A DNA stretch of 64,000 nucleotides from a phage: the sequence record PZ445554.1, one strand, 5' to 3'. A program made the translations under genes and the position numbers. Shown here one piece after another: positions 50,721 to 58,780 of this stretch (position 1 is the stretch's first letter; each line of letters opens with the position of its first letter). The notes beneath the pieces are model-generated. The model was not told where the DNA came from and ran no database searches. It saw nothing but the letters and a program-made list of their open reading frames with translations.

Positions 50721-50963
50721 TTATTCCTTAATTCCTAGTACTTGTTTAAAAGTCTCGTCGTAATCAAGACTTTGACCCGTTTGTTCTTTATGTTTGTATA
50801 TAATATCACTTACTTCTGATAGCATATTTTTATATGAACGAGTTAAAGCAGATTTAAGCACGCTGTATCTATCAGGAAATTTACCGTGTTCATTATAATA
50901 AGCTATTGCTAATTCACGGACTGCCTTTTCGGCAGTCTCCATATATTCTTTACGCTTGGTCAT
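50721..50963 (-). CDS. Hypothetical protein (80 aa)
   Basis: ORF track 50721..50978 (TTG); ATG at 50963. Confidence 0.5.
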
Positions 50964-51264
50964 TTTCTTCTCGGTCAAATCGGTGTTTACAATGGCGACA
51001 TTTATAACGAAGATTATTAGTCTGCCAATGGACTAATTGCACCTGTTCAGTTCCACATTCAGGGCAATTAGGAACGTTTTTAGAAGCACGTTCGCGGCGT
51101 TCAACCATGACCATTACAGAATCCCAATTAATAGGGCTGCTATAATCATCACAACCATGAATCTTTCCACGCATTTCCAGATCGTCTTCTTCACCAGCCA
51201 TAATAATTTTAATTAGACTAGAATTACTTGAAGCTGCAATGTCTTCTAATAGACGCTTTTTCAT
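50950..51264 (-). CDS. Hypothetical zinc-ribbon protein (104 aa)
   Basis: ORF track; CPECG...CRHCKH. Confidence 0.5.
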
Positions 51265-52190
51265 TTCAATACCTCAATAGCATTACGTAAACCATTTGCT
51301 TTTGCATTAAGAGCTTTTAACAATTTGGTGTGTTCTTCAATTTGGGCTTCAACTTCAATCAAACGAGCATTGAGATATTCACGTTCTTCGCTCAAGTTAT
51401 CAACCTTTTCTACTTTAGGTTCTTTTACAACTGGCTTATACGTATTAGGGTTCTTCAGTTTAATTAGAATGCGTGAACTGTATAACATTGAACCATTATC
51501 TTCGGTTTCATCATGCATTTCTACTACGTCCATGATTTTTAACATCATGCGAAGTTTATAAGACAACGAACGAATAGTTTTGTTGTGCTTATTAATTTCT
51601 CTAGCTGTCATGGTGCCGAGATTACGTGAGTAATAATAAGGAACCTGGATATTAATTAATACTGATGAACCACCTGGCTTGTGTGTTACTTCATCAGCAA
51701 TAACCCAGTCCTTAACATGAACTGTATTTGTACGGTCATCGCCCATGGTAAACAGTTTGCGAGCATGCTTAAAAAGCATATTCACTTGAGTATTGAATTG
51801 ACAAGCAAATTTATCAGCAAATTTAGTTTCAGGAATGGTAGATAACCAATCAGCCAAATGGGTCTTTTTAACATCGTTAATAATAGTAAATTCAACCAAA
51901 TCGGTTATAGATGTCGCAGATTTAATGAAGCTCGGCTTCATAAAGTTTTTAATGTTATCGCGAGCTACAGTAGAAGATAACATACGAGAACGTTTAAACC
52001 ATTCAAGCAAATTGCCTAACGAATGAGAATAAGCGTTTTGAGTATCTTTACAGATATGATTTTCCTGGCCAACATATTGAAGGAAATCACGAAGAATATT
52101 ATTGATTACTGCTCTGTGCCCGATCTGATAATTACGGTGTTTAGTAATAAGACTGTCAAAATAATCAATATAATGTTTACGAGTTTTCAT
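51261..52190 (-). CDS. Hypothetical protein with C-terminal coiled coil (309 aa), paralog family member 1
   Basis: ORF track; C-terminal heptad-like segment [42 protein letters not shown]. Confidence 0.6.
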   Translation of the reverse strand: MKTRKHYIDYFDSLITKHRNYQIGHRAVINNILRDFLQYVGQENHICKDTQNAYSHSLGNLLEWFKRSRMLSSTVARDNIKNFMKPSFIKSATSITDLVEFTIINDVKKTHLADWLSTIPETKFADKFACQFNTQVNMLFKHARKLFTMGDDRTNTVHVKDWVIADEVTHKPGGSSVLINIQVPYYYSRNLGTMTAREINKHNKTIRSLSYKLRMMLKIMDVVEMHDETEDNGSMLYSSRILIKLKNPNTYKPVVKEPKVEKVDNLSEEREYLNARLIEVEAQIEEHTKLLKALNAKANGLRNAIEVLK

Positions 52191-52242
52191 GTTCTTCTCA
52201 CTTGGTTAATGGTTTATACTCCGAGCCATCCTTGGCTTTAAA

Positions 52243-53244
52243 TTACTTAATTAACTGTAAAGCTTGTTCAAGACGATCCAGGCGATTAACAGATTCTTCC
52301 CAAATCCTTTTAGCCTGCTCATATTCTTTCTGTGCTTTATTAGAAATTTCTAGAACTTCTTTATAAGCTTTTTCTAGTGCAATAACTTCTGGACGAATTT
52401 CTATCGGTTCAGGTGAATCGTCAAGACATTCCATTAGTTCCTCAAGGGTAGTTTCTTCTTTAGGAGTATTCACAATTTCATCACATTTTTGTTGGTAAAT
52501 TTCTTTATCAGTCGGTGAGTACGCACACTTTACTTCACGAAGACTAACTACAATTTTATATCCTTCCCAACCGCATATATTCTTAAAAGGATAAGTATGA
52601 ATATTTTCTACTGTTTCCATACAAAGTAATGCAGTCTCTAACTGACGAGTTATATCACTAGCAATTGAGAAAAATTTATTAATGTTCTTTTGATTAGCTT
52701 CTGGTGTAAAAAATTCATAATTCACAAAAATAGCTACTTTATTTTTATCAAGTTCATATTCTTTTATGATAATCATATCAGAAGCCAAAGGATGAATTTG
52801 ACGATAATCGCCATAGCATAATTTAGAAGCTGATTTCAAAATTTGCTTCTTGAAAAGTCTAAAATTACTAACCCAACGACGAGTAAAAATATTCTCAGGG
52901 TCTTCTTTAATATTAAGATGATAAGAATTAACATCACCGAACCAATTGTATCCTACTACATCTTTAGTTCGTTTAATTTCTTTCCCAAATTTACTAAGAA
53001 TATCTTGATTAACTAAATATGAAAGAAGACGAGACCCTTTAAAGGTTTCCTTAATATCATCTTTATCTGCACGACTAGAAATTTTATGAACTTCATGAAT
53101 AAATTTGCTGGAAGAAACAATACTTGCATCAGTATTATTGAGCCATTGATTGATAATGGAAATAACGCTATTCTGACTAGACATAGGTTTAACTTTATCA
53201 TCAATAACGCTATTGAATGATTTGATATATTCGTTACGAGTCAT
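52243..53244 (-). CDS. Hypothetical protein with C-terminal coiled coil (333 aa), paralog family member 2
   Basis: ORF track 52243..53295; N-terminal 17 codons are translated promoter; ATG at 53244 after GAGGAG. Confidence 0.6.
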   Translation of the reverse strand: MTRNEYIKSFNSVIDDKVKPMSSQNSVISIINQWLNNTDASIVSSSKFIHEVHKISSRADKDDIKETFKGSRLLSYLVNQDILSKFGKEIKRTKDVVGYNWFGDVNSYHLNIKEDPENIFTRRWVSNFRLFKKQILKSASKLCYGDYRQIHPLASDMIIIKEYELDKNKVAIFVNYEFFTPEANQKNINKFFSIASDITRQLETALLCMETVENIHTYPFKNICGWEGYKIVVSLREVKCAYSPTDKEIYQQKCDEIVNTPKEETTLEELMECLDDSPEPIEIRPEVIALEKAYKEVLEISNKAQKEYEQAKRIWEESVNRLDRLEQALQLIK

Positions 53245-53271
53245 ATTAATCTCCTCAGTAGAAAGTAAGAA

Positions 53272-53303
53272 CATTATACCACATCCTTGTGGCAAAGTAA
53301 ACT
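53272..53303 (-). promoter_or_regulatory. T4-type early promoter, near-identical to the rIIA.1 promoter (palindromic spacer CCACAAGGATGTGG)
   Basis: Minus-strand GTTTACTTTGCCACAAGGATGTGGTATAATG. Confidence 0.5.
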
Positions 53304-54321
53304 AGTTCAGTGCATTTAGTGCATTATTCAGTTTAGAACGTTGCTTTGCCAGATTTTGAACCCTTGACTGAGCTTGTTCTAACACCTTTTCAGCTTCTAG
53401 CACTTCATTGGTCGCTTTAACGAGTTCATCATCTACTGCCTTGATAGACTTCTCAATCGCATCCGCGTGCCATTTTTCAACGGGTTTAAGACTCGGATTT
53501 TCAACAGGAAGAAAATTCACTTTATTGAATTTCCATGCATCTTTATTACCTGAACTATACATCCAAAATTTAGGATCGTTTGATGAGTAATTAGATAAAT
53601 TTAAGTTATCTTGCACTTCTTGCTTTTTCTCTTGCGGGACTTCGTCCTTTCTCAAAAAATCGTATTTAAATGAAACGACCATATCAAGTTCATATGTTGT
53701 TGTATGTTCCCAATTTCGCTCAAAACGAGGTAAAATCTTAGAATGAACAGCGGCAACAACATCCATATACTTAAATGCTTCTGTCAACTGCGATTTAAGG
53801 CATTCACAAATTGAAAGAGAATTTTTTGTATTAGGTTTAAAGCTAATTCGCGCAGTTCTATTATTTTCTTTTAATGGTCTTACTTCCATCTGAAGAGTAT
53901 AACCATCAAATTTCAGGTTCTTTAAGTTAATGTCAGAACCTTTTAATCGACTAGCCGTCGACAAAATTTGCTTTAATTGTTTACGGAATAGAGCAATAAA
54001 TCTCCATTCAATACGATAATGATTTGGATTGAAAAATCCAGATGATAAATCGACCTTACTCTGACCAACACCTTGAACAAATAGAGGATTTTTATAATCA
54101 ATAGTTTTACAGAAATCGGTGAGCTGCTCACGAGCAGTCATTTGTGTAATATACCCCGCTTTACTAAAATGACGTAATAATTCACTGCTATTTAGATATT
54201 TAAAGTGAATAGCACGATTAACTTTATCAGGGTCTAAATTATTTTCACACAAAAATGTCATAACATTACGAGTATCGCTGCCAGTACGAACCATATCTTC
54301 AATTTGAGAACGAGTTTTCAT
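53302..54321 (-). CDS. Hypothetical protein with C-terminal coiled coil (339 aa), paralog family member 3
   Basis: ORF track; shares architecture with 52243..53244. Confidence 0.6.
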   Translation of the reverse strand: MKTRSQIEDMVRTGSDTRNVMTFLCENNLDPDKVNRAIHFKYLNSSELLRHFSKAGYITQMTAREQLTDFCKTIDYKNPLFVQGVGQSKVDLSSGFFNPNHYRIEWRFIALFRKQLKQILSTASRLKGSDINLKNLKFDGYTLQMEVRPLKENNRTARISFKPNTKNSLSICECLKSQLTEAFKYMDVVAAVHSKILPRFERNWEHTTTYELDMVVSFKYDFLRKDEVPQEKKQEVQDNLNLSNYSSNDPKFWMYSSGNKDAWKFNKVNFLPVENPSLKPVEKWHADAIEKSIKAVDDELVKATNEVLEAEKVLEQAQSRVQNLAKQRSKLNNALNALN

Positions 54322-54329
54322 GGTGTTCC

Positions 54330-55217
54330 TTAAGATTTAAGTAAATCAACAATTTTAATTAACTTTTCACGCTCAGATTTAGCTTTACTACTCAGTCCAG
54401 ATAGTCTGAAAATTTCATCATCATATTGTTGAATAGAAATATTCAGCTCTTCAATCTGTTTATTAAAATAATCAATTTGTTCAGAATGTTTTTCGTTACT
54501 ACGAAATGGTACAGGTTTTGTAGGCAATTTAGTTGAATTGGATTCATCCGGGCGATAAATTAAAATACAACTTGAACCAATCGGACATTTAGCACCAGAT
54601 GAATATTCTAACGTTCCAGCTTCTTTTAAAACTTCAAAAGCTAAACAGAGATGATGCCCCATATTGACATAATCTGTAGAGCGAGCTCTGATATAATAAT
54701 CATCGCCGCGAATACTAAATTTAAAGCATTTAAGGTCTTCTGTATTATTGGTCTTAAAAATCATTTGTTTATCTAGACCTTTAGCTAATCGAGCGCCTAA
54801 TGCTAATAATCGTCGTTGATTTTCCCACAAATCCGCAATCATTTGATCGAATGATAATTTCGGCATTAGTCGACCATAAAGGTCATATCCTTTATTATAA
54901 TTGCGAAGGATTTCACTCGCATTAATACGAGACAACGCTCCAATTTTATTAAGGGCTTTCATGATGCGATTAGATAAACCCATTCCAGACCCGTTTGTTC
55001 GTTGTAAATGTTTATCTAATCCAAACCCAATATCAACTTTAAATTTATCTAAAATTTCAGCATGAACATCTCTGTCAATAACATTCAAATCCAAAGTTGG
55101 GTTAAATCTATGAAAAAATTTATCTGGCTCTCCACGACGAAGTACAGTCCATTCATTTAATTTTTTATTAACTAAAGATTTAATTACTGCGTTGACATTA
55201 TTAATTACTACTGACAT
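54330..55217 (-). CDS. Hypothetical protein with C-terminal coiled coil (295 aa), paralog family member 4
   Basis: ORF track 54330..55232 (TTG); ATG at 55217 after GAGGAAAAT. Confidence 0.6.
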   Translation of the reverse strand: MSVVINNVNAVIKSLVNKKLNEWTVLRRGEPDKFFHRFNPTLDLNVIDRDVHAEILDKFKVDIGFGLDKHLQRTNGSGMGLSNRIMKALNKIGALSRINASEILRNYNKGYDLYGRLMPKLSFDQMIADLWENQRRLLALGARLAKGLDKQMIFKTNNTEDLKCFKFSIRGDDYYIRARSTDYVNMGHHLCLAFEVLKEAGTLEYSSGAKCPIGSSCILIYRPDESNSTKLPTKPVPFRSNEKHSEQIDYFNKQIEELNISIQQYDDEIFRLSGLSSKAKSEREKLIKIVDLLKS

Positions 55218-55691: not shown

Positions 55692-56219
55692 TTATGCGAG
55701 TACCGTCTTTAACCGTTCTTCAAACTTCCGAAGAGTATTTTGGCGTTCAGCTCTTTGCTTTTTGTAAGTTTCAATACGCTCTGAAATGAGATTGTATCGT
55801 TCATTTACTGATTCTTTCATAAAATCAGGAATTTCACGAGAAGCTTTAATCTCGTCAAATTTATCAATAACAGCTTGCTCTTCAGCAATTAAGTTATCAT
55901 ACATCAAAATATCTTTCTTGATGAACTCAATATCTTCTTGAGTTACACGAGATAATTTAGATGCTTTATCCTTTTTGTACTGTTCGTTAGTATCACGAGA
56001 CCAGTGTAATGTACGATTTTTATTCGTATTCTTGTAAATTTCTACAATACCAATCTCATCGATAATAACGATCCAATTCCAACGGGATTTGTAAATTTGT
56101 CCTCCATCAACCGTGATTTCACCTCCGATTGAGATGTCATTAAAGAACTTGCTTTGTGCTTCAGATTTAAATTTACCATCGTTGTAATTTACCAGGTTGA
56201 AAATATCTTTAGCGTTCAT
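55692..56219 (-). CDS. Hypothetical protein with C-terminal coiled coil (175 aa)
   Basis: ORF track; ATG after conserved leader GGAGGAACACAAA. Confidence 0.55.
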   Translation of the reverse strand: MNAKDIFNLVNYNDGKFKSEAQSKFFNDISIGGEITVDGGQIYKSRWNWIVIIDEIGIVEIYKNTNKNRTLHWSRDTNEQYKKDKASKLSRVTQEDIEFIKKDILMYDNLIAEEQAVIDKFDEIKASREIPDFMKESVNERYNLISERIETYKKQRAERQNTLRKFEERLKTVLA

Positions 56220-56279: not shown

Positions 56280-56594
56280 CTAAAAGAAACTTCTTTCACA
56301 ATTTTTTCCACTGAACCACGCGCTCACTGCTTTCTTAGTCTCAGGAGCAGTGTTATCCATAAACCATTCAAAGGCAGCCTTTTTATGATTCTGGAGGGCT
56401 TCTCGGGCTTTAATCTGCTCACGGTCTATTAACACTAACATATGAGCCTTTCTTGTCACCAAGGGCTTCTTATGATTCTTGGAGTATTCCCAGTCATTTG
56501 TCCAACGCATTGTCGTTGCGAACTGATGAACCGCGTCTTTAATTTTAGTTTCGTAAATTTCACGAGCCTTTGAGTATAACATCACTACCTCCAT
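56280..56594 (-). CDS. Hypothetical protein (104 aa)
   Basis: ORF track; ATG after GGAGG. Confidence 0.5.
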   Translation of the reverse strand: MEVVMLYSKAREIYETKIKDAVHQFATTMRWTNDWEYSKNHKKPLVTRKAHMLVLIDREQIKAREALQNHKKAAFEWFMDNTAPETKKAVSAWFSGKNCERSFF

Positions 56595-56683
56595 TTACCA
56601 GTTTAATTCTAATCATCTTTTTGATGGCAGTCCATATAATCTATTTCTGAACTGCCTTTTTGTCATAGAAGGCCTCTTATGAA

Positions 56684-57652
56684 TTATTTCAGAAGAGTAA
56701 CCTCAGCAATTTCTTCCCAACCGTTTTTGTCGGTCATAATAAAGTCAGCAAGATAAAGTGCAGTACGCAGTGAAACATTGCGTAAACGATTAACATTGAC
56801 TTTCATCCATGATAATGCTTTATAAGTTTCTTCATCAGAAAGACCGCGCTTTTGCATCATGTCAGTTGAAAGAATAACATCTTCAACCCTGACCATAATT
56901 TCTTCATTAGTGTGAACACCCAAATCCAAATAAACTGAGCGGGACACTAATGCTTGTAAATGTGGAGCAAGTTTAGTACCACGGTCTAATTCGCGGTCAA
57001 TATCAACGTTTGTGATAAAAACAATTGTTCCTTTAAATTCAAACTCACGGTCAATGCCTTTTTCTTCTAAGTAAGAAGATGCAGTACTCCAGCAGACTTT
57101 ACGGGTCTCTCCAGTGTCCAGAGCAGCTTTCAGAAGATTAAGAATGTCCATATCAGAGAAAACATCCACATCATCAATCAAAAGGACAGAATTCTCTTCA
57201 CGATTATTCCAAAGCTGCTCATAAAGACCGATACCAGAGATTTTACCATTAATGCTTTTATACTCAATGTATCCAATATCATTTGCTTTATTTAAAGCTT
57301 TATCTAAAGAATACGTTTTACCAATACCCGCCGCACCAGAGATAATTAATGAACGAATGTTTCCGTTAATAATACCATTCGTCATCATTCCCATAACATT
57401 AAATCTTTTATTAATGCGGGTTTTCATATCTTCATATGATTCTTTAACTTCTTCAACTTTTACGCCATCATATGAAATGTCTGATTTGTAAACCCAAACA
57501 CCGCGACGTTTACCGTCAATTTCAACAAAAACTTTACCATCTCCTTGTGCATCTACCGGAGCATTATCTGGGAACCATTCGCCTAAGAGCTCAAAAGTTC
57601 CAGAGATTTCTTTACCGAAGTAGATACCCTTATTGATAGTTACAGTTTTCAT
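56684..57652 (-). CDS. P-loop NTPase (AAA-like ATPase), unknown function
   Basis: ORF track 56684..57664; ATG at 57652 after conserved leader; Walker A GAAGIGKT, Walker B VLLIDDVD. Confidence 0.65.
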   Translation of the reverse strand: MKTVTINKGIYFGKEISGTFELLGEWFPDNAPVDAQGDGKVFVEIDGKRRGVWVYKSDISYDGVKVEEVKESYEDMKTRINKRFNVMGMMTNGIINGNIRSLIISGAAGIGKTYSLDKALNKANDIGYIEYKSINGKISGIGLYEQLWNNREENSVLLIDDVDVFSDMDILNLLKAALDTGETRKVCWSTASSYLEEKGIDREFEFKGTIVFITNVDIDRELDRGTKLAPHLQALVSRSVYLDLGVHTNEEIMVRVEDVILSTDMMQKRGLSDEETYKALSWMKVNVNRLRNVSLRTALYLADFIMTDKNGWEEIAEVTLLK

Positions 57653-57685
57653 TTTATTCTCCAAATCCGTATCAGTTGATAGTTG

Positions 57686-57716: not shown

Positions 57717-57746
57717 CGTTTTGTGAAAAATTTTTGAAATAAAAAA

Positions 57747-57764
57747 GGGAGCCCGAAGGCTCCC
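57747..57764 (-). terminator. UUCG-tetraloop hairpin (GGGAGCC-CGAA-GGCTCCC)
   Basis: Perfect 7 bp inverted repeat directly after upstream gene stop. Confidence 0.5.
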
Positions 57765-57766
57765 TA

Positions 57767-58780
57767 TCATTTATAATAACTTCGGTGGTTTTCAAGATAG
57801 ACCTTCTCAAGGAAGTCATCCCAGAAACCCATGTCTACTTTTTGCTGCATACCGTTCTTAGAAGCTTCAGTAGATGCTGCTTCTACTTGATCGACCACAT
57901 CTTCCAAAAACTCTTGAACTGTTTTAAATGGATGCTTACCCAACTTCACGTCGAGAATAAATGGAGCATCTTGGAGTGGATAAACCAAGTCACCGGTTTT
58001 GTAAATTTCCAATAGTTGAAGTCCACCACGACAAGCATGGCTCAGAGCTTTCCAGTCAATACCTTCATTGGCTTCGGCCTTACGAGCACGTTCACCATAT
58101 TCAGCATCTAATTTGTTCAGTGACTGCTTAAGCTCAATAAGAGAAAGAGTTGTCTGATATTTACGACCCAACACAGTGTAGAACGTTTGTGGGCCTGTTT
58201 TCTCATGATTATAGAACACCCATTCACAGAATTCGTTTTCTGGAAGACGATGCTTAATATCTTCAACTTTAGTACGACGCTGCTTAATGGAACCGTCTTC
58301 TTGGTAATCAACCCATTGCTCAGGGATTTGATTAACTACTTTCAATACATCACGTAATGCAGCCAAACGAGAACCCTTGACACCGTATTTAGAAGCTTGC
58401 TTACGGACATATCCTAAATAGGATTTCATGTTAGTCGTATAAAAACGAGAACGGTTGTCTTGAATAAACTTCCACACGTCAGGCAAATCAGATTTAACCA
58501 CTAGCTCAGGTGGAGTGTGAAGCATATCCAATGCTACAGTTTCACCATCTGCTGCTAATTTAAAGAAATATTTAAGACTGTATAGTTCATGGTCAATATC
58601 ATCTTTAGTGTTTTTAGATGATGTGTTGTTAGTGTTTTTACTCATGTGCTCTTTGACATTTCCGATAAGAATATCGCGAGCAGGAGGAACAAAGATTTCT
58701 TTAAAATCTATATCAGATTCTGGGGTAGAAGTTCCATAAAGATGACTACCAAAATAGCTTTTCATTACTGTTTTCATCAT
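57767..58780 (-). CDS. Protein with Pol-beta-type nucleotidyltransferase signature (337 aa), unknown function
   Basis: ORF track; N-terminal GSHLYGTSTPESDIDF fits hG[GS]x9-13Dh[DE]h; family assignment inferred. Confidence 0.6.
   Translation of the reverse strand: MMKTVMKSYFGSHLYGTSTPESDIDFKEIFVPPARDILIGNVKEHMSKNTNNTSSKNTKDDIDHELYSLKYFFKLAADGETVALDMLHTPPELVVKSDLPDVWKFIQDNRSRFYTTNMKSYLGYVRKQASKYGVKGSRLAALRDVLKVVNQIPEQWVDYQEDGSIKQRRTKVEDIKHRLPENEFCEWVFYNHEKTGPQTFYTVLGRKYQTTLSLIELKQSLNKLDAEYGERARKAEANEGIDWKALSHACRGGLQLLEIYKTGDLVYPLQDAPFILDVKLGKHPFKTVQEFLEDVVDQVEAASTEASKNGMQQKVDMGFWDDFLEKVYLENHRSYYK

Follow-up and report, generated by a model that had tools for sequence, protein, structure and literature searches.

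The nrdC.3-nrdC.6 locus

Sequence record PZ445554.1 is a phage DNA stretch of 64,000 nucleotides, which we refer to in full as the window. It derives from a Tequatrovirus and contains four consecutive open reading frames (ORFs), nrdC.3, nrdC.4, nrdC.5 and nrdC.6, all on the minus strand, whose relationship and possible role in countering host immunity are the subject of this analysis. The 5.3-kb stretch around the array has 96-97% DNA identity to many T4-like (Tequatrovirus) genomes. In phage RB3, where the DNA is 96% identical, the same ORFs are annotated as nrdC.3 to nrdC.6 and are flanked by nrdC, nrdC.1 and nrdC.2 on one side and by nrdC.7 to nrdC.11 on the other. A preliminary description of the window, made from its letters, had reported four consecutive genes of about 295-340 amino acids (aa) and had assigned them to the nrdC.3-nrdC.6 slots of T4. 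The four genes are present as described and the RB3 annotation shows that the assignment is right.

The gene nrdC.3 (51261-52190) encodes a protein of 309 aa that matches PHROG family phrog_1435 with an expectation value (E) of 1e-116 and belongs to an nrdC.3/nrdC.4 clade. It is an alternative, RB3-type allele that is 61% identical in protein sequence to the allele of T4 and T6. The next gene, nrdC.4 (52243-53244), encodes 333 aa, matches the same PHROG family (E = 8e-167) and has homologues that carry PF26897. The nrdC.5 gene (53302-54321) encodes 339 aa and matches PF23882 (DUF7235) with 412 bits (E = 2e-123), where the Pfam gathering score is 30 bits; it belongs to PHROG 2351. The fourth gene, nrdC.6 (54330-55217), encodes 295 aa, matches phrog_2257 (E = 9e-152) and has homologues that carry PF26899. 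Protein identity to T4 is 92% for nrdC.4, 92.6% for nrdC.5 and 97% for nrdC.6.

The ATG start codons of nrdC.4 and nrdC.6 are preceded by the Shine-Dalgarno sequences GAGGAG and GAGGAA, respectively. A longer ORF that begins with TTG and reaches 53295 was rejected as nrdC.4, and the ATG behind GAGGAG was taken as the start. A consensus scan found an early-promoter-like site on the minus strand at 53273-53301, within the 57 nt that separate nrdC.5 from nrdC.4 and just upstream of nrdC.4. It consists of TTTACT, a 17-nt spacer and a TG-extended TATAAT, with 10 of 12 consensus matches plus the extended -10 element, and is a consensus match only.

In GenBank, nrdC.3 to nrdC.6 are recorded as thioredoxins in many entries and as tail or baseplate proteins in some. 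We rejected a thioredoxin or glutaredoxin identity, for which there was no Pfam match; a CxxC motif occurs in none of the four proteins. The thioredoxin labels are a case of name propagation from the neighbouring nrdC gene.

Relationship and architecture of the four proteins

BLASTP of the window proteins detected similarity between nrdC.3 and nrdC.4 (E = 7e-8, 24% identity over 270 aa) and no significant pairwise similarity in the remaining five of the six pairs. PHROGs groups nrdC.3 with nrdC.4 and gives nrdC.5 and nrdC.6 a family each. Pfam recognizes three separate families, PF26897, PF23882 and PF26899, and a Pfam scan placed the DUF7235 model on nrdC.5 only, with no match in nrdC.3, nrdC.4 or nrdC.6. 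Both the insignificant BLASTP results and this division into three families are what would be expected if the genes were unrelated neighbours that resemble each other only in coiled-coil composition and similar length.

Profile-profile comparisons with hhalign argue against such a coincidence. An off-register match of nrdC.3 to nrdC.5 (E = 8e-11) was discarded as an artefact of a chimeric sequence, P0119, in the nrdC.5 alignment. P0119 was dropped from the profiles, and orthologues from Gaprivervirus, Dhakavirus, Mosigvirus and T6 were added. With these enriched profiles the nrdC.3/nrdC.4 family aligned to the nrdC.5 family with E = 2e-6 over 255 collinear columns, and nrdC.6 stayed at background against the other families. 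When the coiled coil was removed, nrdC.3/nrdC.4 scored 41.9 against nrdC.5 (column-shuffle maximum 21), nrdC.5 scored 28 against nrdC.6 (maximum 22) and nrdC.3/nrdC.4 scored 22 against nrdC.6 (maximum 21).

When the nrdC.6 profile was used as a hidden Markov model (HMM) to search 1.84 billion representative proteins exhaustively, only 14 hits were returned. Three of these are distant full-length relatives (P0233, P0234 and P0236), from which we built a bridge set, FX, that contains no window sequence. The closest relatives of the FX proteins are encoded by single-copy genes just upstream of nrdC.2 in Kanagawavirus (IME523 and PEi20) and Mosugukvirus (PM2). In profile-profile comparisons, FX matched nrdC.6 (E = 4e-17), nrdC.5 (E = 2e-12, 244 columns) and nrdC.3/nrdC.4 (E = 3e-8, 241 columns) over the full length. 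With the C-terminal coiled coil cut off, so that only the heads were compared, the corresponding values were 2e-9, 3e-6 and 9e-7. A combined nrdC.6 and FX profile matched nrdC.5 with E = 5.5e-9 at full length and 2e-6 for the heads, and nrdC.3/nrdC.4 with 5.5e-7 and 3e-5. The heads-only scores (41-68) were well above those of column-shuffle controls (19 or less) and also far above reversed-sequence controls.

When the FX profile was run on the 137 ORFs of at least 80 aa in the window, nrdC.6 ranked first (E = 7e-16), nrdC.5 second (E = 1e-7) and nrdC.4 third (E = 6e-4); the fourth-ranked ORF had E = 0.33. P0234 and the IME523 protein both attain the gathering score of the Pfam DUF7235 model; the bridges had originally been retrieved with the nrdC.6 profile. 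In a MAFFT alignment all families are collinear over their whole length and share, in the same order, the motifs F-K-x-G-x-L-S...A...L..F and R..L...A.RL..GD, a P-x-P-V-like linker element and a terminal KLxxAhxxLK. A mid-protein segment match that had been pointed out earlier is real and is part of the second of these motifs, which aligns in all four families.

Judged from these comparisons, nrdC.3 to nrdC.6 are true, very divergent paralogs with pairwise identities below 25%. This supports the divergent paralogy suggested in the preliminary description, and the alignments place the similarity beyond coiled-coil composition. We include nrdC.6 because the intermediate FX sequences link it to the other families. 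It is very improbable that the four genes are unrelated neighbours, a reading already contradicted by the bridge profile matches, the heads-only comparisons and the scan of 137 ORFs; the motifs are collinear over the full length and the predicted domain order is identical in the two proteins modelled. We propose that the three Pfam and PHROG families, together with the single-copy X-type genes of other genera, form one superfamily. Our literature search found no paper that treats nrdC.3 to nrdC.6 as a single family. The genes themselves have long been annotated, one has a published function, and as a system they are not novel in kind; the new element is the superfamily that unites three families and the single-copy genes with an anti-Dsr1 protein.

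AlphaFold2 models cover two of the four proteins, nrdC.5 and nrdC.6, and were compared by the order of their secondary-structure elements. In the nrdC.6 model (mean predicted local distance difference test score, pLDDT, of 78), helices extend to about residue 150 and are followed by a beta-beta-alpha-beta-beta unit at 165-221 and a low-confidence linker at 227-242; the tail of this monomer model folds back as a helical hairpin (242-271 and 277-294). The nrdC.5 model (mean pLDDT 69.6) has helices to residue 127, a beta-beta-alpha-beta-beta unit at 143-218, a 55-residue disordered linker at 225-280 and a 56-residue helix at 283-338. The predicted architecture is the same in both proteins: a helical subdomain comes first, the beta-beta-alpha-beta-beta subdomain second, and a disordered linker then leads to the heptad helix at the C-terminus.

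In all four proteins, 83-92% of the heptad a and d positions within the final 42 residues are hydrophobic, compared to 20-30% elsewhere (shuffle p = 0.01 or less), and the heptad register counted from the C-terminus is identical in all four tails. With this heptad periodicity in a long helix, the tails are predicted coiled coils. A C-terminal heptad-like coiled coil of about 40 aa had been noted previously in all four proteins and agrees with both the heptad statistics and the helices of the two models. Three of the heads, those of nrdC.3, nrdC.5 and nrdC.6, are basic, with isoelectric points (pI) of 9.4-9.6 and net charges of +9 to +12, and that of nrdC.4 is near neutral. All four tails are acidic.

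Structure searches of BFVD with the nrdC.5 and nrdC.6 models returned only uncharacterised T4-like phage proteins of 300-370 aa (E from 1e-8 to 5e-4), with proteins of PM2, fHe-Yen9-01 and Merlin common to both lists. A sequence search of the PDB gave designed helical repeats only and no solved structure related to nrdC.3 to nrdC.6. Pfam identified no enzyme or known functional domain in them beyond DUF7235, and PADLOC gave nothing useful on their function.

Three further observations concern individual proteins. The nrdC.6 protein of Shigella phage Sf25 (P0121) is 378 aa long and has residues 176-258 tandemly duplicated, an 83-residue duplication that comprises the beta subdomain and the linker. 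The gp111 protein of Yersinia phage fHe-Yen9-01 (313 aa; L010, 16382-17323) is encoded outside the usual slot, beyond an nrdC.10 homologue. It matches both the nrdC.5 and the nrdC.6 models structurally and the nrdC.5 HMM weakly (11.8 bits), and may be a displaced distant family member. Lastly, Foldseek matched the beta subdomain of the nrdC.5 model weakly (E = 0.0035-0.024, probability up to 0.97) to phage tail completion proteins, tail terminators and minor tail proteins. We note them because defence sirtuins sense phage structural proteins. A model in which nrdC.5 acts as a decoy was rejected since these matches are too weak to carry it or any other interpretation.

Distribution and turnover of the array

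The number of copies differs among genera. Tequatrovirus has four, and three are found in Mosigvirus (nrdC.3-like, RB69p097, which corresponds to DUF7235, and nrdC.6-like) as well as in Dhakavirus and Gaprivervirus (nrdC.4-, nrdC.5- and nrdC.6-like). Kanagawavirus and Mosugukvirus have one copy, and Tegunavirus has one with a possible distant second. The array lies next to nrdC.2, in the early region from nrdC to nrdC.11, and this location is the same in Tequatrovirus, Mosigvirus, Dhakavirus, Gaprivervirus, Kanagawavirus and Mosugukvirus. The gene order nrdC.6-nrdC.5-nrdC.4(-nrdC.3) is fixed in every genome examined. A scan of IMG/VR with the nrdC.6 alignment found only 13 loci, which confirmed the gene order and copy numbers. 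In our reading, nrdC.3 to nrdC.6 are restricted to T4-like phages. In the phage collection, nrdC.6 had 742 records, nrdC.3 had 654, nrdC.5 had 582 and nrdC.4 had 554; nrdC.6 is the most conserved and most widespread member of the family. Although the nrdC.3 and nrdC.4 lineages are only about 24% identical, orthologues of each occur in a different genus; either a four-copy ancestor underwent differential loss or modules moved between genera.

Natural isolates show deletions within the array. P0119 is a deletion chimera in which residues 145-271 of nrdC.5 are joined to residues 129-309 of nrdC.3, with the loss of nrdC.4. In phage ACG-C40 (locus L012, 4305-4716), nrdC.4 is missing altogether and the genes on either side of it are mostly gone: nrdC.5 is reduced to a 71-aa piece and nrdC.3 to its final 72 codons. 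The nrdC.4 gene is split in one IMG/VR genome. Separately, phage Manna retains only a C-terminal piece of nrdC.4, and phage Pinarejo only that of nrdC.6.

Ratios of nonsynonymous to synonymous substitution (dN/dS) of 0.06-0.28 in pairwise comparisons indicate that the genes are constrained, the constraint on nrdC, nrdC.10 and nrdC.11 being somewhat stronger than that on nrdC.3, nrdC.4 and nrdC.5. In the window and in RB3, the proteins of the nrdC.2-nrdC.3 module (50950-52190) are only 61-64% identical to those of T4 and T6, and its synonymous divergence (dS) from T6 exceeds 1; the flanking genes are 92-100% identical. This module looks like an allele-replacement mosaic, with the nrdC.2-nrdC.3 alleles swapped as a unit. 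Changes in copy number, natural deletions and fusions, and the existence of two nrdC.3 alleles are a pattern of turnover typical of arms-race genes.

A proposed counter-defence role and the neighbouring genes

One of the four genes has a published phenotype. A T4 clone with compensatory deletions had lost its ability to plate on ECOR17 and also on MG1655 that carried the dsr1 gene of ECOR17, and plasmid-borne nrdC.5 alone restored its plating on Dsr1 cells (Srikant, Guegler and Laub 2022; PMC9391042). The window nrdC.5 is 92.6% identical to this T4 allele. Dsr1 is a SIR2-domain protein that depletes nicotinamide adenine dinucleotide (NAD) and whose sensor recognises the major capsid proteins of other phages (PMC13581612). 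Nearby genes also act against host defences: gp49.2 inhibits OLD (PMC13096335), nrdC.1 inhibits Septu (10.1101/2025.11.20.689424) and Bas37_0203 inhibits Druantia III (the same 2025 preprint). By gene order and its 528-nt length, nrdC.8 (55692-56219, minus strand, 175 aa) is the orthologue of Bas37_0203 (supplementary file 3 of that preprint). The genes nrdC.1 to nrdC.6 can be deleted from T4 (PMC9825161), and nrdC.3 to nrdC.8 were scored non-essential by HIDEN-SEQ (10.1101/2025.11.20.689424). The preliminary description had raised a host-interaction role for the array, and these independent experiments on nrdC.5 and on flanking genes fit it.

We think it fairly probable that nrdC.3 to nrdC.6 are a tandemly expanded counter-defence family in which diverged target-binding heads are carried on a shared oligomerising tail. 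The nrdC.5 protein disarms Dsr1 and the other three are its paralogs; therefore nrdC.3, nrdC.4 and nrdC.6 are good counter-defence candidates. In this explanation the four genes arose by ancient tandem duplication from a single accessory gene that is early and non-essential. Each product has a predicted globular head of some 220 residues, followed by a disordered linker whose length varies and by an amphipathic heptad helix of 40-55 residues ending in KLxxAhxxLK; in the head, a helical subdomain with the F-K-x-G-x-L-S...A...L..F and R..L...A.RL..GD motifs precedes the beta-beta-alpha-beta-beta subdomain. Made early in infection, each protein would bind and block a different host immune protein through its head, the target pathway of nrdC.5 being that of the NAD-depleting sirtuin Dsr1. 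The conserved tail would make the proteins oligomeric, either homotypically or heterotypically, and this may provide avidity where the targeted immune proteins form oligomers too.

A further suggestion, which we regard as doubtful, is that the conserved C-terminal helix is a common docking or bundling module that assembles the heads into a multivalent "anti-immunity hub" or tethers all of them to one host or phage partner. Were this true, the array would be a set of modular, swappable heads on a common tail, and the natural in-frame fusions of heads and tails that arise by deletion would be a source of new specificities.

Several points weigh against a counter-defence family. Phenotypes are known for nrdC.5 alone of the four, so that such roles for nrdC.3, nrdC.4 and nrdC.6 are extrapolated, and direct binding of nrdC.5 to the Dsr1 pathway is a guess. 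Among the clinical isolates tested by HIDEN-SEQ, none of nrdC.3 to nrdC.6 is named as conditionally essential (10.1101/2025.11.20.689424), and the rows of that dataset that were examined are not significant (for example, Bas37_0201 with a log2 fold change of -0.73 and q of 0.8). The pairwise dN/dS values correspond to overall purifying selection, with no gene-wide signal of diversification. The link of nrdC.6 to nrdC.3/nrdC.4 is borderline when bridging sequences are left out, the confidence of the nrdC.5 model is only moderate, and both structures are models of monomers. The basic heads of nrdC.3, nrdC.5 and nrdC.6 would also suit nucleic-acid binding.

This last property underlies one of two other functional explanations, namely that the proteins bind nucleic acids in host takeover or regulation, the head being basic and helical and the coiled coil serving for dimerisation, and that the effect on Dsr1 is indirect, for instance through expression or timing. 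In its favour, the charge of these three heads is paired with acidic tails, the conserved G-x-L-S...A...L motif falls in the helical region, and nrdC.3 has a weak, sub-threshold match to an integrase SAM-like DNA-binding domain (E = 0.039). We nevertheless find the explanation improbable, given that Pfam returned no significant DNA- or RNA-binding family, that the head of nrdC.4 is not basic, that none of the genes is needed on laboratory hosts and that they are located among several proven direct anti-defence genes. Alternatively, nrdC.3 to nrdC.6 could be subunits of a single hetero-oligomeric complex, joined by their C-terminal helices and acting on one process. Retention of the tail motif and heptad register in all paralogs while the heads diverged to less than 25% identity would fit such a complex, as would the adjacency, common orientation and fixed order of the genes. 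It is weakened by copy numbers of one to four among genera, where the single-copy genera show that some function can be served by a lone copy, by natural isolates that lack nrdC.3 to nrdC.5 (ACG-C40) or nrdC.4 (the P0119 genome), and by the rescue of the T4 deletion clone by nrdC.5 alone on Dsr1 cells (PMC9391042). We consider such a complex unlikely.

Returning to the proposed counter-defence family, the closest known counterpart is T4 NrdC.5 itself (PF23882; PMC9391042), of which the window nrdC.5 is the orthologue. The nrdC.3, nrdC.4 and nrdC.6 proteins are remote homologues with the architecture of T4 NrdC.5; unlike it, they have no DUF7235 match, and the identity of their heads to it stays below 25%. 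By description, nrdC.5 is also like DSAD1, the DSR2 inhibitor of phage SPbeta, in that both are phage proteins directed against a NAD-depleting defence sirtuin (PMC10973363, PMC11087589). DSAD1 binds the sensor region of DSR2 in competition with the activating phage structural protein (PMC10973363, PMC11087589). By analogy, we propose that nrdC.5 may work in a comparable manner. DSAD1 differs, however, in its target, which is DSR2 and not Dsr1, and in its phage and host lineages. We know of no coiled-coil tail in DSAD1. A further parallel is provided by the internal proteins of T-even phages, which are likewise small, clustered sets of dispensable accessory genes that each counter a different host defence and are often lost or exchanged. 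Those proteins are packaged in the virion and have in common only an N-terminal targeting motif, whereas nrdC.3 to nrdC.6 would be early cytoplasmic proteins that share a fold over their whole length and a C-terminal coiled coil.

T4 has about 130 uncharacterised accessory genes, and roles are known for only a handful. The present analysis turns three "hypothetical proteins", nrdC.3, nrdC.4 and nrdC.6, into specific counter-defence candidates that can be tested directly, and it describes a superfamily fold for which no related structure has been solved. The family has grown to four copies in T-even coliphages and has undergone differential loss, allele replacement and deletion, a pattern that offers a compact example of accessory regions that track host immunity. 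It is also of relevance for choosing and engineering T4-like phages for therapy.

Among the genes beyond the array, nrdC.8 had also been described as ending in a coiled coil. Its C-terminus does show heptads (p = 0.005), but membership in the family did not hold up: neither HMM searches nor hhalign detected similarity to nrdC.3 to nrdC.6, and we rejected nrdC.8 as a member. A coiled coil in nrdC.8 is no evidence of membership. Neighbouring proteins of 256-261 aa and 140 aa in Kanagawavirus and Mosugukvirus were rejected as family members as well.

Farther along, the window has a 90-nt gap at 56594-56684, between nrdC.9 and nrdC.10, where RB3 and T6 have a homing-endonuclease-like gene and RB3 has another small ORF. 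A strong terminator-like hairpin lies between nrdC.11 and nrdC.10 on the minus strand (57746-57765), with an 8-bp stem that includes six G-C pairs and is followed by a run of T. The nrdC.10 gene (56684-57664) gave weak matches to AAA/STAND-type NTPases, and nrdC.11 (57767-58780) matched the RlaP nucleotidyltransferase family (E = 2.5e-11). The two are possibly a two-gene enzyme pair beside the anti-defence genes.

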